Shown one piece after another: positions 1 to 47,121 of a stretch of 64,000 bases of DNA (positions are counted from its first letter, which is position 1; each line of letters starts with the position of its first letter). A program made the translations under genes and the position numbers. The notes under the pieces were generated by a model that saw only the letters and a program-made list of their open reading frames with translations, had not been told where the DNA came from and did no database searches. Origin of the DNA: Psammoneis japonica (Eukaryota); NCBI GenBank assembly GCA_008632985.1, contig QPGO01000120.1:1-64000 (forward strand), read 5' to 3'.

Positions 1-1092
1 GCTCTTGAAAAGAGTCAGTCACCAACAACGGCAACAATGACATCCCTGCCTTGCAGGGAAAGTGTCTTGACAAAGACTCAGATGATGAAGATGACAAAAG
101 GAAGAAAACAATCAGCACACGCAAGGCTTCATTCGGTCGCTCCGACATGACACAGCGGGCCAGTCCGTCGAATCCAAGGTGGCTCATGTTGGTCCCCACC
201 AGCCTGATGTGATCAAGCACAGCATTGCACACCAAGCCACTTCACAAGTCCAGCCCAACCAGCAACTGCTCCTTGCCACCGCTTGGTGTTTTGACCATGG
301 ACAATGTGAATTTCTCCACAATCCAGAGATCAAATGTGGAGACATTGTTGACACTGTCAATGTTCGTTGCATGATTCTGTTTAAAGAATGACTCCAATGT
401 GCAATTGGGGAGGCAAGTGCAGTGTGCATTTTCATGTGCACATTCACAATTGTGAGTCATGAGTGTTGTGCACGTCATTTGCACCACAGTCGTGGGTGGA
501 CACAAAGGACAGATCGATCACACACACAGAGTTGACAGGATGTCAAGAGTTGCAAATGCAGTTGATCAATGACACTGACAGACAAGATGTCAATGCAAAT
601 CAAGTGTGGACAATCTGTTGTCATGATCAGATTCTCCAAGAGGCCTTCAGTTTGCAGAAGCAGTGCCAAGGCTTCAGGCCATTGAGGACCCCTTCAGAGA
701 ATCCCAAAACAGCAGAGTGAAATCTAATCTCATGATTTCTGCTTTTTGTGATTTGTTCCACTTTCATGCACACTTGTTCTTTGAGCACAGCGCGTGCTGG
801 CATTTGAAGCATCAAGTCATTTGGGTGGCTCTGGCACTTGTGGTGGTTGGAGCCTTTGCACTGCCACAGGCGGTGATGGCTGGAGTCTTGCACCAAACAA
901 CAGCCAAAGCAGCCAGCATCAAGTTGAGGGCAACACTTGCACTTCAAAGCACTTGAAACTTTGAGCTCAGAGGCTGTTTTGTTCAGGGTCATCCAAAGTG
1001 CCATCAGCCTGCAGCACATTGTCAACCCTGTTGAAAGAGTTGTCCGGCTTGCAAAGCTTGATCACAATGTGAGATTTTTCCTTTCACTCATT
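1..1092. mobile_element. Highly degenerate repeat/TE relic (TpA- and CpG-depleted)
   Basis: Almost no TA and few CG dinucleotides, no credible ORF. 1025-1080 (ccctgttgaaagagttgtc...gcaaagcttgat) resembles 10870-10920, so it is repeat-derived. Confidence 0.5.
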
Positions 1093-1097
1093 GGCAC

Positions 1098-1373
1098 TGA
1101 CAGGATTTGAACAGGATTTAGGTGCGCGCGAAGTATCGCGCGCTGTTTAGTTTACCGTGCACAGTTTTGTGTGCTTTAGTTCCGCGCGTTCACGCGCGAT
1201 GTAGTTTGCTTTCGAGCCACAAGGCTCACAAGAACAACAACAGTAGCCCGATTGTGCCGACTTACACGTCTTTCGGCTCCTGCAACGGTCTCTGAGCGGA
1301 GACTCATCTGCCATTTAGACAGCAGTAAGGAGTCATTGTTTGAATTCTTGCCATTTGCCTTCATTTTCTGTCA
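1098..1373 (+). repeat. 5' LTR of copia element
   Basis: Direct repeat of 7929-8204 with 13 mismatches and no indels; TG...CA termini. Confidence 0.97.
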
Positions 1374-2314
1374 GATTAACAGTCTTGCTCATTGTCAACC
1401 CATTGAGCAACCGCCATCGTCGTCGTTGATTTACCAACGACGCTATTTCAATTCTACGTGGACCTCCGTGTGTGTTCTACATACATCGGCAAGTCTACGC
1501 GCATTCAATACCAGGGCATCGGCAGGAAGTTAACGTCACCGTCAAGTCTCCTTACCGCTGGATATCTGGATTGATTGTACTGCCTTTGATCGCTGAAGAC
1601 TTGTGTTCAACGGTCATATCCAAGTCTATCCTTGATCAACATCCCTTGACACACCTGTTCCTCGGTTGACGGTCAAGAACCCTGCATGTTCAAGGATCTT
1701 AGTCGCTGAAGACACATGCATGTGTGTCACATCTTCACGGCCAAGAACCTTTATCCACTCTTCGGACTGCGGTTTTGCTGCCACTCTACAAGCACACCGA
1801 GTCCATTGCACCTGATCTACCCCGGACTGCTGGTGCTCTGCAGTTCCACTGGGTCCACGAGGACGACTGTGAGAGCAGGCAGCCGTGATTGCAGCCTGCG
1901 TTGGGGCGAGGGTGCTTTCCCGCGTTTGTTCGTTCGTCCACAGCGCCTGACGCCTGCGTCAACTGGCCAGCCTGATCGGGAAATCCAACCGACATAAAAC
2001 AAGAACGGTTCGGGGGTCTTGTCCACCTCTAGTCAGCTCACCTGCAGGGGTTTACAACCCGCTGCTCCGCTCGCAAGCAACCCAAAGCGCCACCAGCTGC
2101 GGGTTCGGACGTGCCGGCACAACTCTGCGGACCGGACAGGAAGTTTAGCACTTGACAACGAACGGGATGACAAACCCCGGCGACTTCTGATCTCAAGACA
2201 GTTCAAGATTTCAAGTCAAGTCCATTTCAAGTCAAGTCTGTTCTCACCCAAGTTTCGAGTCTACCTTCGCTTCCCAACCAGAATTGATTGTCCTGACACC
2301 ACTTTTTGTCTGCC

Positions 2315-5300
2315 ATGGTTCTCACTCGTCAGCAACAAACCGATGGTTTCGAGCACGTGGTTGGAACCGTGCTTGCCCAAGGTGCTGGGAGTCCTCTTCG
2401 TTTGGCTTTGGCCCAAGACGGCACGGACTCGCGTCAGGAACTGTTCACGTTCATGCCGTCCCAAATCGACTCGCTTGAGTGCGACAACGGCGCTAATGCA
2501 ATCCCTTTGCCCCGTGGTCATAAGAACATGTTAGCAGCACTGGTCAGTCTGTGCATTGTCAAAGCACACAAAGGTCTTGACGTTGCCAACGACTCCTCTT
2601 TGTTCACGCATGACGAGTTCCTTGCCACCGCCTCAGCCCCGACTGCATGTCTTCTGTGTCCATCGGCAGCTCACCCCTTGCACCTCCACATGTCACCAAC
2701 CCGACCAAGGCACGCGACCCGGTGCGGGACTTCAAGCGAGGCATCAAGCGTGATCCCACCGCTTTACGGCTCTCAAATCCGACAAGCAGTGGCACACTTG
2801 GCACACCTCACTTGTGGCACAAGCCCGTGCCCAAGACGTCGAGTGCATTCTAGACTCGTCGTACAAACCGACCAGCCCCGAAGACAAACTGCTCTTTGCT
2901 GAACAGCAAAAGTGCATGTTCGCCGTCTTCGAACGCATCCTTCTCACCGACAAGGGCAAGGCTCTCATTCGCGAAAATGTGGGGTCTTCTGACGCACAGA
3001 CCGTCTGCCGCTCCTTGTCTGAGTGCGCGCTTGCCTCCACCCGCGCATCTGTCGAGTCCTCCACCCTGCTCACATGCCTCACCACCGCGCGTCTTGGTGA
3101 TGGCACTTGGAAAGGTCCGACCCACGGGTTCATCCTTCATTGGCAAGATCAGTTGCGCAAGTGCGAGGCACTCATCCCGGCCAGTGACCACTTCTCTGAA
3201 GGACAGAAGCGCGTCATGCTCGAGAATGCCGTGCACCCTGTCGAGGAACTCCGTGCTGTCAAGAACCAAGCTGATCAGCATCGTACGCAGAGCGGCAAGA
3301 GCCTCACATGCGATCAATGCTGTGGCTTGCTCCTCTCCGCGGCAGCTCAGTGCGACAGCACGTTTCAACCCAAGACGACACCTCGAGCTCCCCGACGCGC
3401 CACATGCGCACACGACGTCTGCTCCGAGGAACCGTCCGACGATGTGTTCTACGACATTGACAGTGACGTTGATGTCCTTCAAGCCAATGCTGCCTGCACC
3501 CGCGGTCCCAGCCTCACCGGTGTCCAATGGAGACGTCTCCCTCCCGACCACCAACGGCTTTGGGATTCGTTGCCCGATTCCTCCAGGGCGATCATCCTTG
3601 AGCATTCTCGTCCACCTCCCCGCAACCCGCGAGCCAGCAACTGCCATGAGTCTGTTACGGCCAACCTTCATGACCAACGCCTTGGGAGTGACGGTGATGT
3701 CAACTTGTCCAACACGACTCCCGCTGACTCTGGTGACTCCGCTCCACATGTGGACGCCACTTCGGATAATCCCATCCTGGCGCACCTCACCAAGCGCAAG
3801 CCACTGCCACCCGGTGATCTGCAACGTCTGTTGTCTCCCAACCAAGCTCCCAATGCCAGTCGACCGGGGCCATCCGCCGCTTCCTCTACCCCGCCAGCTT
3901 CTGCAGATGACACAGAACTTAACGGCCGCACTTGCCACCGCGTTAACAACCACAATGTCATTTGCTCTGCCTCTGCTCATCGCTCCACACGCACTGGCGC
4001 TCTAGTCGATCGTGGGGCCAACGGCGGCATTGCTGGCGACGACGTTCGCGTCATTGCACGCACCTCTCGCCAAGTCGACGTTCAGGGCATTGACGATCAT
4101 CAATTGGTGGACATCCCCATTGTCACCGCTGGTGCCGTATTGAGACCCAGCGTGGTCCCGTCATCGCCATCCTCCATCAGTGCGCATGCACGGGAAAGGG
4201 CAAGACCATCCATTCCTGCGGCCAGCTCGAATGGTACAAACAGGATGTCAACGATCGCTCTGTCAAGGTGCCCAACGGCTTGCAACGCATTGCCACTCCT
4301 GATGGCTATGTCATCCCCATTGACATCAAGGCTGGCCTGCCTTGTGTTGCCATGCGACCTTACACTGACGCCGAATGGGACACCCTGCCCCATGTCATCC
4401 TCACCGGTGATGACACATGGGACCCTTCCGTCCTCGATCACTCTGTCACTGACGACGACCAGTGGTGCGACGCGATCTCTGACCTGCAGGACGATCCCAC
4501 TGCCAACCCATTTGACGAATGCGGCAACTGCCGTCATCGTGTCGTTGTCAACGAGACCATCATGTCCGCTTCCTTGTCTGCCGATCACGCGTCCGCCCTC
4601 GATGATCACCTCATTCCGAATGACGACGTGTTCTACGAGTGTCATCTGCATGCGCTTGGCCCCCAGGGCGATGACGTTCCACCTCCGGAGCGCACTGTAC
4701 AGCCCAAGGACCCCCCCTTCGAGTCTCTTCGGCCTCACTTTGGCTTCCCACCTGCCGATGCGGTCCGTCGTACTTTTGACTGCACCACGCAGTGCGCCCG
4801 CATGCCCGCTGGTGCACACCTTCGCAAGGCCCACAAATCACCCAACCCCGCCCTCAATGTGCACCGCCGCAACGAGCCTGTCGCCACTGACACCGTTCAT
4901 GCCGACACCCCGGCCGTCGACTCTGGTTGCACCAGCGCCCAACTGTTTGTTGGCACCGAGTCTGCCGTCACTGACGTCTACGGCACTAAGATGGACAAAG
5001 AGTTTGTCAACACACTCAAGGATCAGATCCGTGAACGTGGTGCCCCATCCAAACTCATTGGCGATCGTGCTCAAGTTGAGATCAGCAACAAAGTGCTCGG
5101 GATCCTGCGCGCCCTCTTCCTCTCTAGATGGCAAAGTGAGCCTCACCAGCAACACCAAAACTTTGCCGAGCATCGACACCAGACCGTGAAGCGCATGGCG
5201 AACACTGTCATGGATCGTTTTGGTTCACCCGCCCATGCATGGCTGCTGGCGCTCATGTGCGTGTGCTTCACACTCAACCATGCAGCGTCCCCACGTCTCC

Positions 5301-7981
5301 ACTGGCGCACGCCCCTCGAGACTCTCACTGGCTCCACCCCGGACATCAGCCCATTGCTTCGCTTTCACTGGTGGGAACCCGTGCACTTCCACCTCGATGA
5401 CTCCGATTGGCCGTCCGAATCCCGTGAGTTGCGTGGACGCTTCGTTGGCATTGCTGAGCATGTCGGCCACCAGATGACCTTCAAGATTCTCTCTGACGAG
5501 ACTCAGAAGATCCTCTGCCGGTCCAACGTCCGCTCCGCTACCCCCGATCCTGCCGTTCGAAACCTGCGTCTTGATCCTCCTGATGGGGAGCCACCTGAAC
5601 CCATCATCAAATCTCGCCATGACGACAACCCCGTCGACTCTCCTGATGGGGAGATCAGGACACCCAAGATGCCAGTTTTCGATCCGCAAGACATCATTGG
5701 ACGCACCTTCCTCATGCAGCCACAAGAGGACGGACAACGCCACAGAGCTCGCATCGTCAAGGCCGTCGAAGACCACGAATGGAAAGTGAACGGCAATCCC
5801 GAGCTCACTAAGTTCGTCTGCTCTGTCAACAATGACGAATACGAGGAAGTCCTTGCCTGCAATGACATCATGAATCACATTGAGCAAGAAGACGAAGACA
5901 CCACTGTTTGGAAATTTCGACGCATCGTGTCACACGAAGGACCTCTGAAGCCTCACGACCCAACCTGGAAAGGCTCCAGCTACAACATCATGCTTGAATG
6001 GGAAAGTGGGGAGATCACGTCCGAGCCTCTTGCCATCATCGCCAAGGACGACCCCGTCACCTGTGCCATCTATGCACGAGAGAACGGACTCCTCGACACG
6101 GATGGCTGGAAGCGGTTCCGCACCATCGCGAGGCGCCAAAAGAAGCCATTTCGCATGGCCAACCAAGCCAAGCTTCGCTCCTTCCGCACTGCACCTCGCT
6201 ACAAGCATGGACACGAAGTTCCCCGGAACTACAAACACGCCATGTCACTAGACGAACGCAACAGCAACCGCAAGTGGGGAGACGCAACTAATCTCGAGAT
6301 GGACCAACTCGACGAATACGAAGTCTTCCATGACTGCGGGCCCTTCAAGTCTTCCACTCCTCCTGCGGGACACAAGAAGATCCGAGTGCACCCAGTGTGC
6401 GACGTGAAACACGACGGTCGCCACAAGGCACGACTCGTAGCCGACGGGCACCTCACGGACGTACCTGTCGACAGTGTCCACTCCAGAGCAGTCTCCCTCC
6501 GTGGCCTTCGGCTGATGATTTTCCTGGCCGAACTCAACGAGTTGGAGACATGGGCCACCGACATTGGCAATGCCTGCCTTGAAGCCACCACCAAGGAGAA
6601 GCTTTACATTGCAGCTGGACCCGAGTTCAGCAAACTCGAAGGACACATCCTTGTCATCCACAAGGCACTGCATGGACTTCGCAGCTCCGGTCTCCGCTGG
6701 CACGAGCGCTTCGCCGACTGCCTGCGAGCTGAAGGCTTCTTCCCCTGCCGTGCCGAACCCGACATTTGGATGCGCAGGAACGGCGACCACTGTGAACACA
6801 TTGCCGTTTATGTGGATGACCTCGCCATTGCCATGAAGGACCCTCAATCTTTCGTCGACACTCTCACGGAAAAGCACAAGTTCAAGCTCAAGGGTGCGGG
6901 ACCCATTGAGTTCCATCTGGGTTGCGACTTTTCCCGGGAACCCGACGGAACCTTGTGCCTGTCTCCGCGCAAGTACATCGAGCGCATGGTCGACAGCTGT
7001 TCCCGACTGTTTGGGGAGAAACCTGCCACCAACGCCCTGTCACCTCTGGAGAAGGGTGACCACCCCGAACTGGACACTTCCGAACTGCTGGGACCCGATG
7101 GCATTCACAAGTTCCAGTCTCTTGTTGGTTCACTCCAATGGGCAGTGTCCCTTGGTCGAATTGACATTACCACGGCCGTCATGTCACTCTCCAGCTTCCG
7201 AGCTGCACCCCATCAAGGCCACTTGGATCGTGCCAAACGCGTCTGTGGGTGCCTCTCCAAGATGCGACACGGTGCTCTCCGCGTTCGCACGGAAGAGCCC
7301 GACCACTCGGATCTCCCTGCTCCGGCCTGTGAATGGATGCATTCCGTGTGTGGTGAAGCAGAAGAGATTGTCCCGAAGGACGCTCCACCGCCCCTTGGCA
7401 AGTTCGTCACTGCCACCCACTGCGTCGATGCAAACTTGTGCCATTGCATGCTCACCGGACGCTCTGTCATGGGAATGCTCCACTTCCTCAACAAATTCCC
7501 GGCTGATTGGTTCTCTAGGAAACAAGCCACCGTGGAGACTGCGACCTGCGGGTCTGAATTTGTTGCCGCAAGGACTTGTGTTGAGCAGATTATCGACCTG
7601 CGCATCACCCTGCGCTGCCTTGGCGTCCCGATCCGTAACGTCAGTTACATGTTCGGTGACAACAAGTCGGTTGTAGACAGTGCCACCATCCCGCACTCCA
7701 AGTTACACAAGCGACACACCGCACTGTCGTTCCACCGTGTGCGTGAGGCAATTGCCTCTGGTTGCCTTGAGTTCCACTTCATCGAAGGCTCCCGCAACCC
7801 TGCTGACATTCTCAGCAAGCATTGGGGTCACTCCCAAATCTGGGACCTTCTCCGCCCCCTCATGTTCTGGAACTTCATTCCATCCGAAGTCGAATCTGTT
7901 TCTGTGGCTCCTCAAGCAAACTGGGGAGTGACAGGATTTGAACAGGATTTAGGTGCGCGCGAAGTGTCGCGCGCTGTTTAG
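2315..7981 (+). pseudogene. copia gag-pol polyprotein, frameshifted and Tyr-depleted
   Basis: Protease LVDRGANGG, integrase (TDTV...SEPHQQHQNFAE), RT (KARLVADG, YVDD), RNase H (NPADILSK). Frameshifts near 2640, 2810 and 4140. Confidence 0.93.
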
Positions 7982-8204
7982 TTTGCCGTGCACAGTTTTG
8001 TGTGCTTTAGTTCCGCGCGTTCACGCGCGATGCAGTTTGCTTTCGAGCCACAAGGCTCACAAGAATAACAACAGTAGCCCGATTGTACCGACTTGCACGT
8101 CTTTCGGCTCCTGTGGCGGTCTCTGAGCGGAGACTCATCTGCTGTTTGGACAGCAGCAAGGAGTCATTGTTTGAATTCTTGCCATTTGCCTTCATTTTCT
8201 GTCA
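7929..8204 (+). repeat. 3' LTR of copia element
   Basis: Direct repeat of 1098-1373, preceded by the PPT and followed by TSD GGCAC. Confidence 0.97.
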
Positions 8205-10930
8205 GGCACCATGGTGTGGGCTGCTTTTCAGAGCCCGGAAAAAGTCAAAAAGAGGCATTCAAAGGTTGGGAGTGCAGCTGGCATTGCAAGCTGTTGAAAG
8301 CTTGGTCCAAAAGTTCCCGCAAAAAAGCTGAAAAATGTTGTGAGGTGCAGAAAATTCCAGCATTGCTGAAGAAAAAGAAGATGCAAGCCCAAGCTGCTTT
8401 GAGGCTGTTGGCAGCTGTTGACAGGCATTGCAGACAACAAAGTGGAAAGACAGCTCCAAAGCCTCCATGCAGCTGGGCTCATGTTGCCCTTTTGGCCCAG
8501 TGAAAGGCATCCAAGTGTGAGGAGGTCTCTGATGTTTCTTGGTCAAGAGCATGCAGCAGTGAGTTGGCTGGTGCTGGTGTGTCCCAAAAGGGTGCCCGCC
8601 TGGGCTTGGTGCTCCCCCAGCACAGGCCCATCCATGTGAGCAGTGTTTCTGGCAGAGGAAGAGAGCAGCAGCAGGGTCAGCAGTGCTGGAATGAGGAGGT
8701 GTTGAGTGGTCAAGCTTCTGACAAGCTTTGGCACACAAAAGAGAACCTTTAAAAGGTCTTTGCAGTGGCCTTGGGCAACAAGCCAGTCACAGAGCTGTGT
8801 GATGATCATGGAGAAATTGCTGAGATTTGCACTTTGAGCCCAGCATTGGCAAAGGCTGCCACACACAACACCCTGAAGGTTGGCTGAAGTTGGCAGAGCA
8901 CAGAGGTTGATGTCTTTCTGGCAGGTGCTTGTCTCCATTTGGCTGGCTGCTCCAACTGGCTTGAAAAGATCCAAGATGATTGCTTTGTCCTTCAAAGGGA
9001 AGTCACCACCCACACCTCAATGAGCCAACATCACCAAGCTCCCATTTGCTCTGTCTTGTTCACAAACTCCATCACATGGAGCTCAGCTGAACCAGTCTCA
9101 GCTGGGGGTGGGTGGAAAGCAGGTGGGATGCAGGGCTGTGCTCTTTGTTCTTGAGGTGCAGTTCAAAGTTCTGATGAAGCATTTCAAGCATGTGGAGCCA
9201 AATGTTGTGCACCTCATCTGTTGGGAGGCAAAGGCTGAGGTGACTTGACTCAAAACTTGTGGCTGAGACTTGGCAAAGATCCAGGCTTGGGGGATGGCCA
9301 GAGCCTTGTGCACAGTGCGCAGGATGTGGGAAGTCATGTTGCAGGTGCTGTTGCATTTTGGGGCACTCACACTGCCCCACAGCACATTTGCCTGTGTTGC
9401 CTCAAGGTGGCTTGTCTGGGTCAGGTGTGACAAAGCCATGAACTTGCTGGCAGTGCTCAGATGTCTCTTGGGTTGCTGCTGCAATGGGACAAATGGCTGC
9501 TTGGGGATGTGCGCCAGTCTCAACTGCAGAGCTGCTTCAGCAGCCCTTTTTTGCCCTGTGCCATGCCCCGTCCACCTTGGTTTGGTCTGCCTTTTTTTGG
9601 TTCACAGGTCTGGGCTTCAGCTTTTTGCAAGCTTGGCATGGGGTTTTGGGAGGTTGTGCTTTTGCTTCCCTTTTCTCTTTTTTTGCTTGGTTTTTGTGGT
9701 GAGTCTTTTGCAGATGTTGCCAATTTTGGGGCTCCCCAACAACACCGTTGGAGCTTTTTTTTTGTCTTGTTCAAAAGTTGTTGCTTGGCACATTTGGGCC
9801 CATCCTGTTCCAAGGCTGCACACACACACTGTCACACACAGTGGGACATGGTGCAACAAGTTTCTTGCATTCAAGGGTGGCAGTGGCAGCATGTGCAGCC
9901 TTGAGCTGTTTGCACGTTCTCTGCTTTGCAACGGCCTTGGCATTTGTCAGCTTCTGCTGCTCTTTCCAGCGCAGCAAGCTCTGGAGACCAAATGTGACAG
10001 AGCCTCAAAAAATTCCTCATTTTTTGGATCATGGCTGTTTCCATCTGCTTTTTGTTGCCTTGCATGCAGGTCACTGCACTGACTTCAAGCTGTGATGTCA
10101 ACAGAGTCCCTGGGAAAGTTTTGGAATCTTTGTGACAAGGAATCTTTCTGGCACTCCTTTGCAGTCAAGCTGGTGTGCAATTTCTTGGATGGCTTTGTTG
10201 TCAGCAATGCCAAGGCAGTCATTGTGCAGCATGGCAGCCAGCTCCCAGTCTGGCCAGGCACTTGGCAAGGAACACCCCTCCAAGGCATTTTGTGGCAATG
10301 TCACGTTGGCACAGCATCATTTTCTTTTTATTTTTAATGCAAAAAGTGCAGTGCTTGCAACAACAAATGCTTCAAGTCTCAGCTTCTTTGTGGCCTCCAA
10401 CTTTCACATGGCTGTTCAATGCACATGGTTCCCTGCTTCAAATTGGAAGCTGCCAATTGCCTTGTTGATGTTGGCAGCAAACTTTTTTGCTTTCTCACGT
10501 GGTCCCAAAGATTGTTGCTGAGTTGAACTTGACATTGATTCTGACAAGCTTGGTGATGAGGGGATGGTCTGCTGGGCCCGGGAATGCCAACCTGTGTGCT
10601 CAGATGTTGCCCCAACTTTGCAACCATGTGCAAGCAGCAAGTGATCCTGCAACACCCTGGAAAGCTGGAAGCTGTGCCTTGATTTGCTTGCGGCATGGTG
10701 ACAATTTGTCCAACTCACATTTTTCATCTGGTGTGCTGATGCTGATGGTTCAGCACCACATGCAAGGCCAAATTTGAGTGGGCGCACAGGCTGTTGCCAT
10801 CATCAAAGTTCACTGCACTGTTTTGGGGGTTGTCCAATGTGCAACCAGCATGCAGGAGCATGACAGCAGCCCTGTTAAAAGAGTTGTCTGGTGTGCAAAG
10901 CTTGATGATGTGAGCTTTTGCTTTCCTGGC
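8205..10930 (-). mobile_element. Ancient retroelement relic, probably Penelope-like
   Basis: ORF 8543-9013 (ILDL...TCQKDINL...GVVCGSLCQCW...WLVAQGH) recalls the C-terminal part of Penelope-like RTs with Y->C changes. Near-total loss of TA and CG. 10160-10215 is an inverted homolog of 25395-25450. Confidence 0.5.
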
Positions 10931-11219
10931 ATTGTCAAGTAGTGCGACAACACGGATGAAGCTTCCGCCTTGCCGTTGGTGTGGACCAGGGAACATCCCA
11001 AATATGTGTTGGCGGAAGAGTTCCCAGTGGAAAATATTGACTGAGCAAGGACCATCTCACAATAGACGACTATGACATACTGAAATAGATCTCATGACCA
11101 TGTCTGGTGCATGAAATTGGACCAAAGAAGATTGGCGTAACAAGCAAACTACCAGCATTCCACTGCCTAATTGACCGGAGAACTTAAACAAGAAACAGAG
11201 AAGGCAGCCCCACGCTGCG

Positions 11220-13175
11220 CTACGTCGCAGTCATCCCAGGCCGATTCATCATAATAATTGCCAAATGCCCATAGAATCTCTCAAAATCGAAACTGTTCTG
11301 ATCAGCCTGATTTCGAATGCTGATGCGATCTCCCTTCTTGATCTCCAACACCTCGTGAAAGAAATATTTAAGTCGAGAACTTCCGCCTTCGACGCGTTCG
11401 TTGGGTATCTTCGAAACGGCCAACTGGTCTTCGTTCAGAAACAGCGAACATCGGCAATCTCCACCGGTTGCTGGGACGTTTCCAATCACAATACACGGCG
11501 TTGGATCGTCCGTAAAAGAAGATGGAGAGGCCTCCAATGCAGAGTCGTCGTTCGAATTTTCGAAAATATGAAACAATGGCTCCAATACCTGGTCTCCCGT
11601 TGCCCTGGCGAAAGATAAAGAATGGGATGTTTCGGTATCAAGACGATATCGATCAACGCGGAGATCCGAAGAGAGCATAAGGAGGAACAAGTTCTGAGTT
11701 GGAAGCTTGCCAAACGCGACGGGAAGGGCGCCATGTGACGCCAGGTAGGACTCCTTGCTTCCGTTGTTTCCCACTGAGATGCGGGAATTGTTTTCGAGGA
11801 ACACAAGGTCATTAAGTGAGCCATAGTCGACAGTATCTGTATCGTGATCCCAATCATTGAACAAAAGTTTGTAGCAAATGCAACTACTGACTTGCAATGG
11901 ACGTCCACCTCGCGTTTCAACCTGCAAACGCACAGATTGTGACTCTGACTCGACCCACCCATCGCCTGGCTTGAAACTCGAGGCAATCCGGCCAAGTACA
12001 AGATGGTTTGCACTGTGATTATTACTGGATTCAATCATCGTCCCGCCCTTTACAAGCTTTGGGTCAAAGGTTGTGGGCGGAAAGTCAGTGTCGCTCTTTT
12101 CCCATGTGGCCACCGTGGGATGCTGGGGCGTTTTGTCGTTGATAATTCGATCATAACGAGCAAGCGTGTTTCCCTGTACTTTCACGAGTGTGACACGGTT
12201 CAAAGAATTTGGATGGATCCCCTCATGACTCTCCACAAGTGTGGAAATTTGCATACCATATTTGTTCGGTATTCTCACCTCCCCGTGCTCTATGTAAAGT
12301 ATGTCACCCTTTCGTAACGAGACGACCTCGGCTGCGGAAGCCGTGTACTGCAGGAAATAACTACCACCATCTTCGTTTTCACTAACTTGGCGGTCTTCTT
12401 TATCGCGTGGATCAAACACGCCACATCGGAGAATCGTGTGTGTCCAGTTATCGTGCGGCTCGGCATCGTGATTATTCGCTTTGAGCGTAAATCTACACAA
12501 CTTTGCAAATTCGTCATGACACTTTTCTACGTACCCAGAGCCAGGAGGCGGTGTTTCGCCTGCAACAGTAGCTAATCGAAAGAAGACAAGGTAAATTCCG
12601 CTTTCTTGAACTTCCATTCCCCAAGGAACTGACTTCTCTTTAGAGCCAACGGCTGTCAGCATATTTTGGTTTCCACCATGATATTCCCAGTTCCATCGCT
12701 GTCGAGTACCAGTGGCCGCGAACGAGACCCACTGATCAGACTGAAAGGTAACGGGCTCTTGACACAGGCCTAACTGTATGAGCTCTGAGCGAACCTCTGG
12801 AACCAAGAAATAATCTGCTTCCACCTCCAATCGATGGATTCTCAGTTTTGAATCTGCAATTTCTTGCAAAAACACCGAACCATAACGAAGATAAGAGAGC
12901 AAGTCGCGAAAGGCCGCGGGGTCGCGGTTCAGGTAGGTGCGATTTTCTTCATCCATGGGATTCAAGGGACTCCAAACATCCTTGAGCATACAACAAAGAG
13001 GCGAGCTCTCATCAAACTTTTCCAAGAGAGATTTTGGAAGGTTCACGCGTTCGCCGCCGTCATTGAGGTACAAAATCGGAGCTTGGGGATGAGAATCTGC
13101 AGCAGCTTTTAGCTTCTTGTTGTCGGAGCTCAAAGTACCGGTGGGCTCTCCTTCTCGTTTACCAGTCGACGCCAT
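11220..13175 (-). CDS. BTB/POZ (KCTD/T1-like) domain protein
   Basis: 651-aa ORF with N-terminal LNDGGE...LNRDPAAFRDLLSYLR...EADYFL motif; normal TA, CG and Tyr content. Confidence 0.85.
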   Translation of the reverse strand: MASTGKREGEPTGTLSSDNKKLKAAADSHPQAPILYLNDGGERVNLPKSLLEKFDESSPLCCMLKDVWSPLNPMDEENRTYLNRDPAAFRDLLSYLRYGSVFLQEIADSKLRIHRLEVEADYFLVPEVRSELIQLGLCQEPVTFQSDQWVSFAATGTRQRWNWEYHGGNQNMLTAVGSKEKSVPWGMEVQESGIYLVFFRLATVAGETPPPGSGYVEKCHDEFAKLCRFTLKANNHDAEPHDNWTHTILRCGVFDPRDKEDRQVSENEDGGSYFLQYTASAAEVVSLRKGDILYIEHGEVRIPNKYGMQISTLVESHEGIHPNSLNRVTLVKVQGNTLARYDRIINDKTPQHPTVATWEKSDTDFPPTTFDPKLVKGGTMIESSNNHSANHLVLGRIASSFKPGDGWVESESQSVRLQVETRGGRPLQVSSCICYKLLFNDWDHDTDTVDYGSLNDLVFLENNSRISVGNNGSKESYLASHGALPVAFGKLPTQNLFLLMLSSDLRVDRYRLDTETSHSLSFARATGDQVLEPLFHIFENSNDDSALEASPSSFTDDPTPCIVIGNVPATGGDCRCSLFLNEDQLAVSKIPNERVEGGSSRLKYFFHEVLEIKKGDRISIRNQADQNSFDFERFYGHLAIIMMNRPGMTAT

Positions 13176-13539
13176 ATCAGTATGACATCAAATGTCAGCA
13201 GTGTCCTTCTGATTTCTGATTGTGGGAAAAGAACAGAGAAAGAGTGATGAGAGACCACTGCTGAATCTACTTATTACTTGTAGCAACAACAGCTTTTTTG
13301 CCTCTTCTCTCCTCGAGATTTCCAGATTCGAGATCCTCGAGATCTTTCAAAAGAACCCGGATCTTCGTATCCACGGTTGGATCGAATCGTTCGACTCAAC
13401 ATCATGCGAACGAACCGCAATTTTTTGTTGGTCTGTCAGTTCCGTGATCATCCTGTCGCCATGCATGAGAGCTCATCTCGCCAAAGAGTGTGATCTTCTT
13501 CTTCTTCTTGCTCAACATTTTGGGATGGATCAGAAACCG

Positions 13540-27714: not shown

Positions 27715-28109
27715 GACGCGTTCCAGCCCTAGGTGGGAGCTCGTAGTACTGACGTGTGACACAAATAATTTTTATCATCCGTGGTATGTTTTGCACGTAC
27801 ATTTCTACGTGTGATATTTAAAAAAATTGTCCAGACTCGCTGTTTTGCGAAGCCCCAGACGTTTTATATAACAAATTTATAGAAACAATAATGCGCCAGT
27901 TACATTCTTCAATGTCTGAAGAATGTAACTGGCTAAGTAAAAAATGATGTACTTCAATCATGTGCGAGTTTGTGCGTTCGCAAAATTGCCTCATTTTCTG
28001 TTGGCGATCATTGACATTTCAATTACCGTATAATTTTACTCCGGAGCTCGCACGTAGAAGTCTACGGGCCCAATGTCACACGGATTCCCACCTACGTCTG
28101 GAACGCGTC
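27715..28109. mobile_element. MITE (GACGCGTTCCAG TIR family), inverted relative to 21600-21989
   Basis: TIRs GACGCGTTCCAG / CTGGAACGCGTC with CAG on both flanks. 28037-28109 is the near reverse complement of 21600-21672. Confidence 0.88.
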
Positions 28110-28183
28110 CAGCGCCGGATTTGATGGCGGCTCCCGGCTCCCTCCATTCTGTTCACTTCCTTTCACAAAGCATCACTTTAGAC

Positions 28184-29043
28184 ATGGATTTAGACCAAGC
28201 ATTGGAAACAAGCGTGTTGGATCAAAGGGGCAGCACAGAAGATGTTCGACGTGCACTTTTGCACGGCGCCGAAGCATGTTTGTGAACGGCACGGGTGATG
28301 ATGTTCCAGCCCCCATCCTTTTTTTTGTTGTTGTTCCGCGTGGCACAACCGATCGCGATGCAAAAGCTCAACTCTTGCTGGATGCCGGAGCACGTGTGAT
28401 GGATCAGCCACATGGACTGGCGCCCTTGCACGGTGCAGCGGTCAATGACAAAGCTGACCGCAATGGTTTGACGCCCTTGCACATGGCTTCAATGCATGGT
28501 CATGATGATTTGTGTTTGTTTCTGCTGCAAAATGGTGCCGATGTAGATTTGAAGTCAACCACCTTGGGTGCAACAGCTCTTCATTGTGCTTCAAGTGCCA
28601 GAAGCGAAAACGCAGCACGAGTTCTCTTGGAGGATGGAGGAGTGGGAGTCAATGAGATTGACAGAAAGGGGCTTGCGCCTTTGCATCATGCAGCAGGCAT
28701 GTCAGGTGGTGAAAGCATTGCGAGACTCCTGTTGGTTCACGGTGCTGACATGGGTGCCGCAGATGTAGATGGAGAAACACCATTGGACGATGCTTTCGAG
28801 CGTGGCCATCAAGCTGCAGTCTCGGTGTTGATGGAAGCGCGTGGGCAACAACTTTTGAAACAAGACAGCATTCATCCAGCTCTCTGGGCACATGTCTTGG
28901 CCAAAGTGGGAGGACGTGGCAGTGCAGACATGTCCAGAATGGGCGTTGTTTGCTCCTTGCTTTGCGAAAAGCCGGATCTGTCAAGCTGCAGGAACACCGG
29001 AAGAAAAAGAAAGCGACCTGATCGTTTTGCACCAGGGATGTGA
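28184..29043 (+). pseudogene. Ankyrin-repeat protein pseudogene
   Basis: GLTPLHMA, GATALHCA, GETPLD repeats; frameshift near 28275; no Tyr in 255 aa; ends in RKRKRP. Confidence 0.8.
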
Positions 29044-29518
29044 AACAAGTGCTGCAGCTTTGTTTTACAAAAACAAAAAACTTTGATTGCACACGTGACA
29101 TGTTTGCTGCGGCAGACATTCAAACCAGCTGTGCTTCTGCCATGCTGTTTGTTTTTTTGTTTGCTGCTTGCTCAATTTGCTCGACAGCATCCAACCACCA
29201 CACGCAAAACAGAGACCTCAAGGTGTGCCTGCCCTCGAAAACTTTGTGAGTTTCTTGGCTGGCACAGAAGAGGTTTCAGCATGCTGGGTTTTTCTGGTTT
29301 CTGGCAAGAAAATGACGTTGGGCCTTGTGTGGCTTCCGGTGTGATCGGCTTTGTCAGCCAATCGACAACAGTCGTTTTGCACTTTGTTCATTTTGCCAAT
29401 CCCATTGGTGTAAATGCACTCACCAGTCAAGGACGTGAGCCCTGTTTGCAGTGTGATTACACCTGGCAGCAAGTTTGTCCTCTCTTTACAGCGCATGATT
29501 TGGCAAGATTGTCGTCGC

Positions 29519-30425
29519 TCAGTCGACAATTTCGTTTGGAAAGTGTTCCGCCAACAAATGTTCATGACAGTCCGTGCTCCACACCAAGGTCAAGGCGGGT
29601 GCTGCATCCGTGTTGTCGCACTTGACAGTGCCAGTCATTGTCTTTTCATCCAGCATGCCTTGAAAAATCGAGTCACCACCATCGTGCACGATTTTGACCT
29701 GGTCGTCAACATCAATCAAAAAGGACCAAATTGGCATGGGCAGATGACGACTCTGATCGGGAAGAAGCAGCTTTGGTTCCACAACATTGCCGTCCAACTT
29801 TTCCATTTGAACAACAACCAGCAGTGGAGGACACGGTGCATCTCCATCACAGGCATCATCATCTGGGCAGCCATGCCAACGGCCTTGCATCTCGATGATT
29901 GTCTCTGGATCTCCTGTCACTGCTTTTTCCATGGCAAACTGAATCTCACGAGGAATGATCATCTTCTTGTCTGGCGGTTTGCAATGACCACAATCCAGAG
30001 AAATGCTTCTGTGCCATGTTGCTTCTACATTCAGGTCATTTTATTTCCAGCCACATCATCAAGCTTTCCAATGTGCACACCATTGATGGCATCAAAAAAG
30101 AAAGATGAATCTCGTTGGCATCTGGATCAAACCTTGTTGCCATGGCGGGGATGAATTGACTCCCTGGTCCAGACTGTGTGTGAAGACTTGTCCGAAAATG
30201 GGAGAGATGCTTGAAAAATGAGGTGCAACTCTAAAGTGAAAGTGCCTTTCCAGTGTCCCACAACAGGCTCCCATTCGTCCTCATGATCAGTGTCCTGCTG
30301 CAGGCTTCAGCCTTCTTGAAAGGAGCAGAAATCGCACAATGACTCTTTGTCAACACCACCCTGAGGATTGTTCCATGCACGATTGTGAGAGCAGCAGTGA
30401 CAACAAAGGCTCCCGCTTTCTTCAT
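29519..30425 (-). pseudogene. Mutated duplicate of the gene at 35568-36494
   Basis: Collinear homology (CDGDAPCPPLLVV.QMEKLDGNVVEPKL) with frameshifts and Y->C/H changes. Confidence 0.92.
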
Positions 30426-31799
30426 GGTGTTGGTCAGCAAAGACATTCTTCAGAACAACCAAGTGACTCCAACAAACAACAAGAGAGATGCCTCAAAAGA
30501 TCTGGTGGCTGCTTCTCTCCATGTGAATGCATTGCTGCACCGATGTGACAGTTGGGAATTCCATTGAACAGGAGAACTTGCTCAGGCAGGAATGAAAGCT
30601 GAAGGTGCATTGGTGCCTTCAGAGTGCGCGCCGTTGCATTGTGTCACAGCTGATGAAGCAAAAAGAAGTGACTGTCTCTCACAAAGCCAACCACCCCTCC
30701 CACAATGCCATCCGCTCAACTCTCAAGTCCCTGGGATTGACACTGTGATGAATGAGTTGAGTCTCGAGTCAAGTCACATTCGCGGTTTGTGGTTTGTGAC
30801 ATTTTGAGTTCACTTTGCCTTCAATCTTTGGTCATCAACACACAAAAGGAAGGGGCCAGCACATGCCATTGCGCAGAGTGCCCCAGCTGCTGCTGCTGCC
30901 ACAAGAAATGGCATTCCCATGGCAAGAAAACAGCTTGCATGCTCAACAATTTCGGCACTGCCCTTGACCTTCCCTGTCAATGTCTGACTGCTGCAGTGCC
31001 AGTTGTCATTGCCCTGGGAATCAATGGAGCCCTCCCATGAATCAAGACCAGCACACTGTCTGGCACTGAAGAAATGTTGCAAGAGATGCTGCTGGCATCA
31101 CTTCTGGCTCCAAAAGGATCTCTCTATGCCAGAAGTCTCTCCAGCTGCTGCAAGCCACACCAGCTCCAAACTTGATGCATGCACAGTTGGGAGCCATCTG
31201 CTTCTGCACCAACTGCACTGCTGTGGCACCTGCTTCTGTCTCTGGCCACTCTTCATCAAGCTGCTGCAATGTCAAAAGCACAGCCCTTTCACCCCATCCC
31301 TGAGAAAGCAAGAGCAGCTGCACACAAGAGAGCTGCAAACCAATCATCATCTGGGACTTGGGAGCAAGTGTTCCAATCTCACATTGTGCTGCCAACTTTG
31401 TTGGACCCCTTGAGAAGCTGGCTGCAATGCCAAAGCTCCAACAAATCACCAAGGGGCAGGAGCCCCTCAGCAACAATGTCAGTGCCTTCACTTCAGCCAA
31501 TTGTTGCACCCACCTTCAAGCAATCTTCAATCAAAAGAAGTGTCAAAATTTGCCAGTGGTGCAGGTGCTCACCACCATCATTGCAGAATGTGCCACATGC
31601 ATGGTCATGTCCATTTCATGCACAATGATGTTGCATGTGCTGCAATTCATTGACCAGATCTTGCCAACACTGTGCTCTGGTCTTTTGCTGTCATCATTCT
31701 GTTGCCTTGCCCAATGCAGTGCCCGACCCCTCCTCCATTGGATTCAGCTCCCAGGATGTCTTCAAAAAGACTCATTGGCTGCATTTTTGATTCAAGGAT

Positions 31800-35175: not shown

Positions 35176-35567
35176 ATCGTCTTTTCGTCAATTGCTACTC
35201 TATTTGCTCGACACATCCGTCCACCACATGCAGATCCTTTTGTCTCCATTCCTGGGAGACCTCGAGTTGTGCCTGGCCACGAGGGCTTCGTGTATTCTTT
35301 GCTGGCACAAAAGAGGTTTTAGCAGGCGGGTTTTCTGGTGAGAAAATGAAGTTGGGCCTTGTGTGGCCTCCCGTAGCATGGTCGGGTTCGCCAACCAATC
35401 AACAATAGTTCTTCGAGTCGTTGTGTACATTATTAATGTCGTCAATCCTGTTGGCGAAAATGCATTTGCCAGTCAAGGAAGTGAGCTGTACCATTTACAA
35501 CATGGTTGCACGTAGTAAGTTTGACCTCTATTATTTACAGTGTATGATGCGGCTAGATTGTCGTTGC

Positions 35568-36494
35568 TCAGTTGACAGTTTCCTTTGTAGACTGTTCCGC
35601 CAACACATGCTTAGGATAATCCTTACTCCACACCAAGGTCAAGGCCGATGCAGCATCCGTATTGTCGTACTTGACAGTGCCAGTCATTGTCTTTTCATCC
35701 AGCGTGCCTTGAAAAATCGAGTCACTACCATCGTGCACGATTTTGACATTTCCTTCAACGTCAATCAAAAAGGACCGAATTGGCACGGGCAGACGACTCT
35801 GATCGGGAAGAAACAGCTTTGGTTCCACAACATTGCCATCTAGCTTTTCCATTTGAATCACAACCAACAGTGGAGGACACGGTGCATCTCCGTCGCAGTC
35901 GTCATCATCTAGGTAGCCGTGCCAATAGCCTTCCATCCCAACAATCGTCTCTGGATCTCCTGTCAAAACTTTTTCCGCGGCAAACTGAATCTCACGAGGA
36001 ACGCTCATCTCCTTGTTTGGCGGATCGTAACGATCGTAATCTAGAGACATGCTTCTGCCGTGTTGCTTCCACGTTCCGGTCATTTTATTTCTAGTAGCAT
36101 CATCAAGCTTTCCAATGTACACACCATCGATGGTATCAAAAAAGAAATGAATCTCGTTGGTGTCTGGATTGAACCTTGTCGCCGTGGCGGGGATGAATTG
36201 ACCTCCCTGGTCGAGACTGTACGTAAAGACTTGTCCAAAAACAGGCGAGACACGAAAAATGAGGCGCAACTCCAAACTGGGTGGCACACCCAGAGTGCCT
36301 TTCCAGTATCCAACAAGAGGTTCCCAGTCGTCCTCATGATCAGTGTCCTGCTCTAGGTTTTGCCCTTGTTGATTGGAGTAGAAATCGAAAAAGGACTCTT
36401 TATCAACGCCACCCTGAGGATTCTTCCACACGGTAGCGGCAGCGTAAAAGACTGCTAGAGCAGCAGCAATAACAAAGGCTCCCACTTTCTTCAT
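35568..36494 (-). CDS. Uncharacterised signal-anchored/secreted protein
   Basis: Intact ORF from MKKVGAFVIAAALAV with normal Tyr content; two W.G.L beta-rich modules; conserved against its decayed duplicate. Confidence 0.75.
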   Translation of the reverse strand: MKKVGAFVIAAALAVFYAAATVWKNPQGGVDKESFFDFYSNQQGQNLEQDTDHEDDWEPLVGYWKGTLGVPPSLELRLIFRVSPVFGQVFTYSLDQGGQFIPATATRFNPDTNEIHFFFDTIDGVYIGKLDDATRNKMTGTWKQHGRSMSLDYDRYDPPNKEMSVPREIQFAAEKVLTGDPETIVGMEGYWHGYLDDDDCDGDAPCPPLLVVIQMEKLDGNVVEPKLFLPDQSRLPVPIRSFLIDVEGNVKIVHDGSDSIFQGTLDEKTMTGTVKYDNTDAASALTLVWSKDYPKHVLAEQSTKETVN

Positions 36495-37153
36495 GGTGTA
36501 TTCTTCAGAATAACTCCAACAGAACAAGAAGTGAGACGCCCAGAAAAGATCTGGCGGCTGTTTCTGTCCAAGTGAAAGCGTCGACGGTTGGGAATTCCAT
36601 TGAACAGTAGAACCCTGCTCAGGCAGGAATGAAAGGTGAAGGTGTATTCGGTATTGCGGCTATTATAAGGGCCCTCTATCGTGTATCGTGTTGCGTTGTG
36701 TCTGGCTGTGACAATGAAGCGAAAAGAAGTGGCGGGACTCAAGGCATGACTCGATTCCCCCGACTGTCTCTGAAACCGTAACAATCTTTCAAAAAGATAC
36801 CAAAAATTTTCGAAATTCATCAAAAATCCTATTTTGAACAGAAAATTCAAAATTCATAGTCATTGACACCCACGACTGAAGGAGACGCGGCAACAACAAT
36901 CACAACAATCACAAGGGATCAGCTCAGCTAAACTATTGCATCAAAACATACGATCTCTTTACCAGCTTCAGCACCCTTGAATGAGGAGGAGATGAAGGTG
37001 CAATTCTTGTTTGTTTCAAGTTGTTTGCTAGTGTGGGCGAGCGCAGCAACAGAAGACACCGCTCACACAAATCATCAATAGGGAGCATCCGCCGAAGAAG
37101 AAGAAGAAGAAGAAGAAGAAAAGGCTCATATTAGCTTCATACCGGCTCCTGGA

Positions 37154-41097: not shown

Positions 41098-41689
41098 TGT
41101 CACGTCGTGCTCATGACCCGACACTTCGAGACGTCATAAAGAACAATAGAGAACTACGGACAGAACCTATATACATCTACGTGAACATACATCAAGAGAC
41201 ACATGCATGCTACATCATGAACAATTATCCAACATCTTCCTCCTAAGTAAACAACCGGACACATGCGGAAAGCGATAGTAAACAACTGGACACGTGTATC
41301 ACTTCCTAAGTAAATCGAGAAGACATTATTTCTTAGCCGAACTTCAAGTTCCTTTTCAGCCAATCCGATTCTCACAAGAAAACGGTCGAAACGATGAAGA
41401 GCGAATCGGATCTCTCGATTTTTCCCGTGATACCTTCGGACACCATACGTGACCTCCTCAGAAGTCCCAAGACGTTCCCTTAGACGATATACACTTAAAG
41501 AAGAACCCAGGAACGTTCCTACATAACGAGAACAGAATTTCTCTGGAAAAGAAAGAATCGAAAGAACATTCCGCGAGATCACCGCTCCAGAAATTCACTT
41601 CATAATTTTACACTTTTATAGTCTCACTTTTCATGAACGACTCTTAAAATCACCACAATCACCCACAATAGGCCTTGTGCCACATGACA
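41098..41689 (+). repeat. 5' LTR of gypsy (TpA-intact)
   Basis: Direct repeat of 47122-47707. Confidence 0.96.
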
Positions 41690-41719
41690 TTTTGATCAAA
41701 CAGTGGCGTGTCATTATAA

Positions 41720-44700: not shown

Positions 44701-47098
44701 TTGGGGATTTCCCTCAATGTTCGTGCCGAAGAAAGGCGGTGATTGCCGATTTGTCACCGACTTTCGGCTGTTAAATCAATGCATGCAACGACGCCCATGG
44801 CCTCTGCCTTTGACACCAACCATGCTCCGAAAGCTGCACGGCTGTGCTCATGTTACAGCGATTGATTTGAACATGGGATTTTTTACGATGCGGATCAGCC
44901 AGAAGAGTCAGCAGCATCTGACTGCTGTGCTGCCGTTCGGCAAATGTGCTCACTGCAGATTGCCAATGGGACTTGCACCAGCCCCAGACACACTCCAAGA
45001 AGTCATGACTGACTTGCCAGGACACTTGGAATTCGTTCTGATTTTTATCGACGACTTGTTGATTGTTGGCAAGGGATCCTTTGATGATCACCTCGCCCAA
45101 TTGCGCGAAGCATTTGTGCTTTTGAATGATGCAGGCTTTAGAGCAAACTTGCGAAAAACTTTCTTTTGCGCTCTAGAAACGGAGCACCTGGGGTTTGTCA
45201 TTGCTGGAAACGGAATCAAACCGCAACCCAAGAAAGTCAATGCGATTGTGAATTTGGTTTCACCCAAAACAAAGAAAGAACTCAGAGGTTTTGTTGGAAT
45301 GACAAACTTCTGTCGCGAGATGTGGTGACTTCGTGCCCATCTGTTGACACCTCTTTCGAGTGTGACCTCGAAAGCGGTCAAGTTCGAGTGGAAACCCGAA
45401 CACGAGCAAGTGTTTCAAGAAATTAAGAGACGGATCTCCACCGAGACGCTTCTTGCCCACCCTGATTTCAACAAGATGTTCCACATCTACACCGATGCTT
45501 CGAAATGCCAGCTGGGAAGCGTTGTCATTCAAGACAAGCGCCCGACAGCGTTCTGCTCCCGCAAACTCTCCGACACGCAAAAAAGACATCCAGTTGTCGA
45601 ACAAGAACCACTGTCGACAGTCATGACGCTACGAGAGTGTCGTGATGTCCTGTTGGGTCATAGGATCACGATCCACACGGATCACAAGAATCTGACCTTT
45701 GCAAATTTCAAGTCAGACCGCGCACGTCGTTGGCGACTGATCGTTGAGGAATTTGGTCCCACGATTCTTTACCTGCCGGGAGGAAAAAATGTGCTCGCGG
45801 ATTTCTCATCACGTGCCGCGACCATGACTGGCGACCCAGAGATGCCAGCTGCAGATCCAATGCTGGAAGAGTGTTTCGCCTTTGAATGCGACGACAACAC
45901 TCATTGTCCCATCTCGTTTGACACGATTGTTGAAGCACAGCAAGATGATGCTACGTGCAAAAAAGCATTGCAACTCACTCGAACCGACCCGAGTCGGAAA
46001 GAATTGTCTGACTGCAGTTGCATGGTGCAGGATGGACACCTGCGCCTGGTCCTTTTTAAGGACAAGATTGTTGTCCCTACAACTTTACAAGCACCTCTGT
46101 TGAACTGGCATCATGTCAATTTACGCCATCCAGGTGTCCAACGAATGGAAAAGACCCTCAGGCAGTGCTGTTGTTGGCAAGGTTTGACCCGAGACGTCAA
46201 GACCAAGGTGGACCAATGCCAGACCTGTCTACAGTCAAAAGAGAACCGCAGAGTGTATGGAAAAACACCTCTCAAGGACATGCAAGCCCTTGAGATCGAC
46301 CCCTGGTTGCAGGTGGCAGTCGACACTGTCGGACCGATTACCTTTGCTGCTGGTGCCGGCGCCAACCGACGAAGTTTGACGTCAACCGCCCTCACGATGG
46401 TAGATCTAGCTACTCATTGTTTTGGCATGGAGCAGATCTCCACAGTCTCAGCTCTGGAAGCTGCCAGAGCATTTGACCAAGCGTGGTTGTGCAAATTTCC
46501 GCGCCCGGTCTGTTGCACACACGACAACGGTGCGGAATTTACAGGCATTGAATTTCAAGAACCACCAGTTTCTCATGGGATTGAGTCTAAACCTGCGACA
46601 GTGTGGAACCCACAGGCGAATTCACTGCTTGAATGGACCCACGATGTTTTGTGGAGCTGCACACGGGCCCAACAAGTCGATGATCCCGACGCATTTAATC
46701 AACCGAATCCGTGGAGTGCGACAATGGCCTCAGCAACTTGGGCGATAAATTCGACGGCACATGCCGTCATGCAAGCCTCTGCTGGCCAACTTGCTTTTGG
46801 AAGAGATGTGATCCTTCCCTTGCAATGCAACGTCCACTGGCCGACCATTTGTGCTCGCCGCCGACAACAAGCGCAAGCAGATGACGCGCGTGAAAACTCT
46901 CGGCGACTCGACCATGACTTCAAAGCAGGAGACCTTGTTTCTCTCCGAAACGACAACCCTCGTCGATCCAAACTCGCCTTACGCCGACTTGGCCCATGCG
47001 AGATGCATGAAGTAAAGTCCAATGGCACCGTCATCATCCAAAAAGGAAATTACCTCGAGACCGTCAACACGCGGCGTCTCGTTCCTTTCTCTCCCTGA
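41720..47098 (+). pseudogene. gypsy gag-pol, disrupted
   Basis: PR LDSGGS; RT RFVTDFRLLN, LPMGL, FIDD; RH YTDAS, TDHKNL; IN HPG...CQTC, VAVD, DNGAEF. Frameshift near 44620 and a TGA stop at 45326. Confidence 0.92.
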
Positions 47099-47121
47099 TG
47101 CGATTCATTGGAGGAGGCGCG

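Follow-up and report, generated by a model that had tools for sequence, protein, structure and literature searches.

The 64,000-nt stretch of DNA analysed here, called the window in what follows, comes from the diatom Psammoneis japonica (assembly GCA_008632985.1, contig QPGO01000120.1, positions 1-64,000 of the forward strand). Near its left end lies a complete Ty1/copia retrotransposon bounded by long terminal repeats (LTRs), the pol portion of which occupies 4268-7981 of the (+) strand. The element has the features of Ty1/copia, with paired TG...CA LTRs, a target-site duplication and an RVT_2 domain with the integrase upstream of it, the integrase match being weak (E 0.008 for a profile of 27 homologues against solved integrases; the protein P0001, searched alone against solved structures, has no meaningful match). 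Like the diatom elements of the CoDi groups, defined in PMC2806351, it has the copia domain order, LTRs at least 95% alike and homologues whose gag-pol is one long frame, and it sits in a diatom genome, with 24 silicon-transporter matches (best E 2e-208); hypermutation is not mentioned in the available part of that paper. The special feature of this element is that most of its TA dinucleotides have become TG or CA, which has stripped Pol of most of its conserved tyrosines.

The copies compared throughout are the window copy and 39 siblings, the best-scoring of 371 candidates in the same genome, which are 95-97% identical to the window copy over their longest matches. An earlier note on this DNA, made from the sequence, took 4268 as the start of a 1237-aa frame. 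The GTG at this position is internal; the stop-to-stop frame is 4094-7981, and the 1237 aa are only what lies behind the last of three single-base gaps. A homologue of 1859 aa aligns by tblastn with 2315-7891, changing frame along the way, one more base is present near 2627, 2766 and 4140 in 34-35 sibling copies, and in 7 of the 39 siblings a single frame stays open for 1895-1965 aa. Judged from these alignments, the 1237-aa frame is a frameshift-cut piece of a gag-pol of about 1900 codons starting at 2315; the gaps may be genuine or assembly errors.

The stop-free translation has, as that note had estimated, 14 Tyr (1.13%), together with 34 Cys and 65 His, while the best 120 of 1975 homologues have 3.93±0.36% Tyr, with a minimum of 3.13%. 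At the 31 columns in which at least 80% of these homologues have Tyr, the window copy has Tyr 8 times, Cys 11, His 9, Phe 2 and Trp 1, whereas 521 of the 569 other conserved columns are kept (Fisher p=5e-17 for the contrast). The homologues do not share Cys or His at these positions (Tyr 3321, Cys 2, His 24), and none of the 120 carries the signature, each having three or fewer Cys/His at the 31 columns. All six motifs in which replaced Tyr had been suspected are found and five are strong cases, with Tyr in 107-120 homologues; VHPVCDVK is present but makes a weak case of Tyr loss, with Phe in 88 homologues and Tyr in 32. The Phe/Trp at three of the 31 columns, which is fixed, and the His at one are traits of the family. 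At the remaining 28 columns the 40 copies have Cys 494 times, Tyr 342, His 265, Gln once and a gap 18 times, so that conserved-Tyr codons have turned into Cys or His in 759 of 1101 cases; 1-18 Tyr remain per copy (39 copies with at least 24 columns covered). The gag and protease pieces are likewise poor in Tyr (1 of 202 and 2 of 462 residues). In the reverse transcriptase of the window copy YVDD is intact, the NAYL position is Cys and the KALY position is His. The Tyr of YVDD is retained in 38 of the 40 copies, which fits its protected flank (see below) and needs no selection.

Since both Tyr codons begin with TA, Tyr becomes Cys through TG or His through CA, but never a stop; by the genetic code, as the earlier note stated, TA loss cannot make a stop of any sense codon. 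Compared with siblings that are still TA, the window copy has Y>C 19 times, Y>H 11, T>A 9, L>P 4, V>A 2, S>G 1 and I>V 1, besides 11 silent and 8 unpolarised changes. Four of the replacements that had been expected are thus seen (Y>C, Y>H, L>P and V>A), while L>S, I>T and I>M are absent from this comparison and the nine T>A had not been foreseen. From the conservation of the residues that are gone, Pol would have been inactivated by the loss of Tyr.

The direction of change is fixed by the Tyr of the homologues and by a three-state pattern in which CG is absent or nearly so. Across the 40 copies, the 223 sites at which two or more copies have TA read TA 3625 times, TG 2877, CA 1693 and CG 7 (of about 8,280), with fewer than 60 others together, and at 164 of them TA, TG and CA are each present in at least two copies. 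Because TG and CA are two steps apart and TA is the sole intermediate seen, TA is ancestral, and a site that has been hit is no longer a target. The direction that had been proposed, TA to TG/CA and Tyr to Cys/His, therefore holds, but the stop-free frame, from which it had been argued, is by itself no proof because an intact gene also shows an open frame. When the 32 TG/CA sites at which TA survives in at most one copy are added, mean TA loss is 62% (range 22-80%; 67% in the window copy), and CG loss is 5%. In pairwise comparison of XA with XG, TA stands at 0.182, CA at 0.024, AA at 0.008 and GA at 0.006. Stops in register with the window frame number 11, all CGA>TGA, in 10 of the 40 copies, so the description of the decay as missense and not nonsense is right for the TA process but not for the CpG decay of the siblings.

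The LTR pairs of 34 copies place this change after insertion. Their differences involve 352 of 1216 bases at TA sites, 47 of 1355 at CG sites and 26 of 6765 elsewhere; 29% of TA-site bases differ against 0.4% elsewhere, a relative clock in which TA sites run about 75 times faster than other sites. The insertions are young yet heavily hit. Of the 13 differences between the LTRs of the window copy, 12 are TA sites, and a second pair in the window, the gypsy LTRs at 41098 and 47122, has 15 of its 16 differences as TA lost from the 3′ LTR. Pairs of copies share TG or CA states at a frequency of 0.668, compared with 0.679 expected from site frequencies.

The base that follows TA has a strong influence. 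A>G occurs at 0.45 before C and 0.46 before T, but at 0.22 before A and 0.19 before G. On the sense strand TG:CA is 63:37 before correction for context, and the preference for TAY (Y, a pyrimidine) accounts both for this excess of TG and for that of Cys over His; after correction there is no strand bias (term 0.12±0.11). Strand-coordinated tracts are not found, neighbouring hits being on the same strand in 0.522 of cases against 0.531 when permuted, and residual clustering of hits, 0.063 at distances below 50 bp, has decayed to 0.005 at 1.6-3.2 kb. T at position -2 or A at position +2 (TnTA/TAnA) protects both strands: with 0, 1 and 2 protecting flanks TA retention is 0.25, 0.40 and 0.71 (98, 65 and 10 sites; p=3e-4, as one of 12 position/base tests). 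The protection recurs in other DNA: surviving TA has such a flank in 55 of 72 cases in erased blocks of the window and in 277 of 636 in its gene blocks, both kinds of block having been picked by us from composition.

Loss is also uneven along the element. Among the LTRs of 34 copies, TA is kept at the 5′ end and lost at the 3′ end 222 times, and the opposite is seen 18 times. In 20 of 33 copies more than 70% of TA is kept within the first 660 bp; for the remaining 13 the figure is 16-69%. In this 5′ zone CG loss is 11 of 840 in spared and 29 of 546 in unspared copies (p=2e-5), and per-copy TA loss rises with CG loss (rho 0.38, p=0.015). In the window TA density is 3.6/kb in erased blocks against 38/kb in gene blocks, and the process appears from this distribution to be confined to foreign or silent DNA, genes being spared. 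Two duplicate pairs outside LTR elements have one member hit each, with 6 versus 47 TA and 21 versus 1 TA. The features of the element are given in Table 1, where the limits of the integrase core are those we take from the D-D-E motif and the RNase H region is tentatively placed by copia motifs.

Table 1. Parts of the Ty1/copia element and its flanks, in window positions
Feature	Position	Strand	Remark
Left flank, older DNA	1..1092	.	TA nearly gone (rho 0.03), CG low (0.27)
5′ target-site duplication, 5 bp	1093..1097	.	identical bases at 8206-8210
5′ LTR, TG...CA, 277 bp	1098..1374	+	95% identity with 3′ LTR
5′ zone in which 20/33 copies keep >70% of TA	1098..1760	+	window copy keeps 47%
gag and protease portion of gag-pol	2315..4139	+	single-base gaps near 2627, 2766, 4140
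pol frame, stop to stop, 1295 aa	4094..7981	+	terminates within 3′ LTR
Integrase core, approximate limits (assumed)	4880..5180	+	upstream of reverse transcriptase (copia order); weak profile match
Reverse transcriptase RVT_2	6362..6997	+	PF07727 E 2.7e-24, residues 699-910
RNase H region, approximate (assumed)	7415..7840	+	contains three of the six motifs of the earlier note
Short polypurine tract	7923..7928	+	adjoins 3′ LTR; read from sequence
3′ LTR	7929..8205	+	TA erased more heavily than in 5′ LTR
3′ target-site duplication	8206..8210	.	
Right flank, older DNA	8211..11000	.	TA rho 0-0.08, CG 0.10-0.25

Public sequencing and metagenomes carry the same signature. The public data are four runs, compared over 6200-13500. 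A run contig of 2747 nt spans 8177-10923 and departs from the assembly at three bases, of which two are CG>CA; TA is restored at none. Run contigs inside the element show both the TG and the CA states. Three of 50 metagenome relatives have the signature, with Cys or His at 14 of 25, 15 of 18 and 12 of 16 conserved-Tyr columns; it is absent from the other 47 loci and is thus not universal. Two of the three belong to one family (94.5% alike), with 66 of their 93 differing bases in TA/TG/CA states. Two of these three loci were searched against the genome and reach at most 71% and 74% identity to the 40 places scored there, so that they belong to two other families. The single-step changes of the metagenome pair have no preference for a 3′ pyrimidine (G 10, A 8, T 4, C 4), and one of the three loci has no bias among surviving TA; the TAY rule is therefore not confirmed outside the Psammoneis genome.

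Taken together, these changes very probably represent a TpA-specific A:T>G:C process that acts on both strands of integrated DNA after insertion and leaves the same signature as in Bigelowiella natans. In that rhizarian, TpA hypermutation strikes integrated virophage DNA and that of nucleocytoplasmic large DNA viruses (Mettrop et al., bioRxiv 10.64898/2026.01.13.699255). According to the available part of this preprint, 230 of 231 mutations in two integrated viral regions are A:T>G:C, all at TpA and about 1000 times background, and arise de novo in a subset of lines; TpA-poor reverse-transcriptase sequences were found as well, and ADAT2, with HxE, PCxxC and Asn at the TadA-108 position, is put forward as a candidate. 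A:T>G:C at TpA, in both the TpG and the CpA form, in foreign or silent DNA and far above background, is common to both organisms, and changes here too are almost exclusively TpA>TpG/CpA. In P. japonica a host mutator would act on chromosomal DNA after insertion, taking individual TpA sites on either strand to TpG or CpA. It is probably guided by silenced chromatin and not by repeat pairing, because loss of TA goes hand in hand with loss of CpG and each of the two duplicate pairs has a single member hit. As for the chemistry, deamination of adenine, whose product hypoxanthine would be fixed as G when the DNA is replicated, is as good a guess as all others combined. The ADAT2/3 tRNA deaminase is the candidate that can be named, although it is rather unlikely to be the enzyme responsible. 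An ADAT2 orthologue is present at L075 (its intron read by eye) with HAE, PCIMC and Asn at the TadA-108 position, as in the motif described for Bigelowiella.

Several points weigh against this interpretation. TA reads the same on both strands, and sequence therefore does not distinguish A>G from T>C. The presence of ADAT2, whose housekeeping role is in tRNA, discriminates nothing, and the 9 and 5 family matches include none that looks like an additional or new adenine deaminase. Besides ADAT2, the deaminase searches turned up a TadA of bacterial type with Asp at 108, a fusion of deaminase and dioxygenase, and genes resembling those for dCMP deaminase and RibD; none of the matches could be tied to the process. 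The state of the 1.1-kb flanks does not predict TA loss in the body of the element (rho -0.19, p=0.31, n=31), and simple spreading from neighbours is thus not supported. The 40 copies, chosen by score, are not a random set, and agreement with the runs is limited in that all four are of one sample, possibly the assembly's own. Some TG/CA alleles, for example at 1455 and 1604, recur in copies that are otherwise spared, and the state-sharing test absorbs alleles common to many copies. Source elements may thus have passed on some of the loss, which would inflate the loss per copy, while the LTR-pair clock is unaffected.

If the same targeting acted on the other base, an oxidised or alkylated T at TpA in silenced DNA would pair with G and be fixed as C, possibly through a protein of the C5-methyltransferase family such as the RID-related DNMT4. 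The palindromic TA would make such T>C look like A>G, and TA loss does track CpG loss; the genome has 27 C5 DNA methylase matches, none of them tied to the process, and diatom DNMT4 may group with fungal RID according to the available part of PMC9998398, in which diatom transposons are CG-methylated by DNMT5 and the function of DNMT4 is unknown. A Tet_JBP search was without a match, but its control was likewise blank, so it says nothing either way. We know of no precedent for T>C by an enzyme of the C5-methyltransferase type, and a thymine lesion is unlikely to be the cause. Still less probable is an error-prone polymerase of the DNA polymerase eta type, filling repair patches begun at deaminated 5-methyl-CpG in silenced repeats. 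The covariation of TA and CG loss and the decay of residual clustering with distance agree with it, as does the slight excess of AA over GA, the signature of this polymerase being A>G at WA (W, A or T); but AA lies about 20 times below TA, strand-coordinated tracts are lacking, and the loss of TA far exceeds that of CG.

Editing of the RNA or cDNA of the element during retrotransposition, by an ADAR- or APOBEC-like enzyme, is very improbable even though the target is a retroelement and the uncorrected sense-strand ratio leans one way. The excess is gone once context is taken into account, the LTRs within a copy differ, and non-LTR duplicates and flanks are hit as well; one-strand clustered editing common to both LTRs was not found, and this explanation is largely refuted. 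ADAR, APOBEC, TadA and ADAT do resemble the process in making A>G next to a 5′ T or U, a neighbour that TadA prefers, but ADAR and APOBEC edit one strand of RNA or cDNA, whereas here both strands of integrated DNA are changed equally, site by site. The corresponding preference of ADAR is cited in the available part of 10.64898/2026.01.13.699255. An artefact of base calling or assembly, for instance if long reads miscalled TpA sites that carry a base modification, has a similarly slight chance. The single sample behind the runs, possibly used in polishing, would allow for it; against it are the run contig that matches the TA-free flank, the two states inside the element, the signature in two unrelated element families from three metagenome assemblies, and the Sanger confirmation of the B. 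natans mutations (10.64898/2026.01.13.699255, available part). The opposite direction, with fungal-type repeat-induced point mutation (RIP) turning CA/TG into TA or with Cys and His native to the family, can practically be dismissed. Nothing was found in its favour, the family traits at a few columns apart, while homologues carry Tyr and TA, TG and CA coexist at the same sites. RIP of ascomycete fungi turns CA/TG into TA, makes stops, hits both members of a duplicate, depends on RID and is premeiotic. It resembles the present process in that dinucleotide-specific transitions wreck repeats after insertion and spare genes, but it makes TA and stops, whereas here a single member of a duplicate is hit and the strands are not coordinated. 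C>T at CpA/TpG creating TA and stops was not seen: none of the 2161 copy-codons at which the window copy reads CAA, CAG or TGG has become a stop, and RIP is excluded, as had been claimed.

The diatom adds a new host, and its LTR elements a new class of target, to TpA hypermutation, for which a single preprint is the precedent. Bigelowiella is a rhizarian and its target is viral DNA, whereas the host here is a stramenopile and the target a young multicopy LTR family; the rate in Bigelowiella was measured de novo, while the present one is relative. The available text of the Bigelowiella preprint does not mention diatom, stramenopile, LTR, tyrosine or stop codon, nor does it contain the TAY preference, TnTA/TAnA protection, the spared 5′ zone, the link to CpG or Tyr-stripping. 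No diatom report of TpA hypermutation was found in the literature, most subscription papers being outside the search, and the available part of a 2025 preprint on diatom transposons (10.1101/2025.10.24.684338) has no mention of dinucleotides, RIP or deamination. More tentatively, and on balance somewhat doubtfully, diatoms and rhizarians may share an ancient chromatin-guided defence by DNA adenine deamination, recruited to CpG-methylated transposon bodies, reading an extended duplex motif (TAY, with T at -2 or A at +2 acting as a block), kept off the LTR promoter as long as this is unmethylated, and killing elements by Tyr-stripping and not by stops. Such a system would edit A to G in chromosomal DNA naturally and, in the stramenopile-alveolate-rhizarian (SAR) supergroup, would correspond to RIP.

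The 40 near-identical copies give the sequence rules of the process and its map along the element, and since knockout tools exist for diatoms (PMC9998398, available part) the responsible enzyme can be found. A natural enzyme converting A to G in chromosomal DNA would be of interest both to genome defence and to base editing. Because 352 of the 425 differences between LTR pairs are at TA sites, LTR-based ages are inflated in such genomes. Moreover, long stop-free frames persist or even arise in dead repeats, and gene callers will report them as proteins; they can be recognised by few Tyr together with many Cys and His.

Other parts of the window and of the genome have their own features. The gypsy element at 41098-47700 has LTRs 96% identical, normal TA to about 43300 and a drop thereafter, so its spared 5′ zone is about 2 kb; its reverse-transcriptase frame has 1 Tyr in 327 aa. 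A second copia reverse-transcriptase frame (58181-60091), with 3 Tyr in 637 aa, lies within a TA-erased block. The pair with 6 and 47 TA is a tandem duplicate of a 363-aa frame without a Pfam match (29212-30611 versus about 35260-36650), of which the upstream copy is the poorer. The other pair (49986-51289 versus about 60550-61630) is an inverted duplicate overlapping a SET-domain gene; in the distant SET-domain copy 19 of 21 and 8 of 10 TA have gone to TG/CA and about half of CG is lost, so that a copy of a host gene is hit. An ankyrin-repeat frame at the edge of an erased block (28015-29043; 3 Tyr in 343 aa, 10.7 TA/kb) is possibly a partly hit gene copy. Among the flanks of other copies (L089-L118), rho TA is below 0.15 in 42 of 62; 5′ flanks are mostly TA-erased and about one third of 3′ flanks are normal, a possible result of biased orientation of insertion at block edges. 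In the run contig, 9916 and 10305 are CA where the assembly has CG, and CpG decay may differ between DNA samples or alleles. Several metagenome relatives (L129, L131, L152, L160 and L164-L167) have strongly depleted CG (rho 0.13-0.30) and normal TA, so that in other hosts CpG can decay while TA stays intact.

The deaminase/dioxygenase fusion (L074:313-1785, minus strand) is an unusual single frame in which a TadA/guanine-deaminase-like domain is joined to a 2-oxoglutarate-Fe(II) dioxygenase, with thymine dioxygenase among the best solved matches of the latter; the fusion probably serves nucleobase salvage. Two adjacent dCMP-deaminase-like frames (L070:309-1989, plus strand) are present on a second contig too. 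Three C5 DNA-methylase copies (L084, L085 and L086) are themselves TA-erased, with rho 0.07-0.10 and almost no Tyr.

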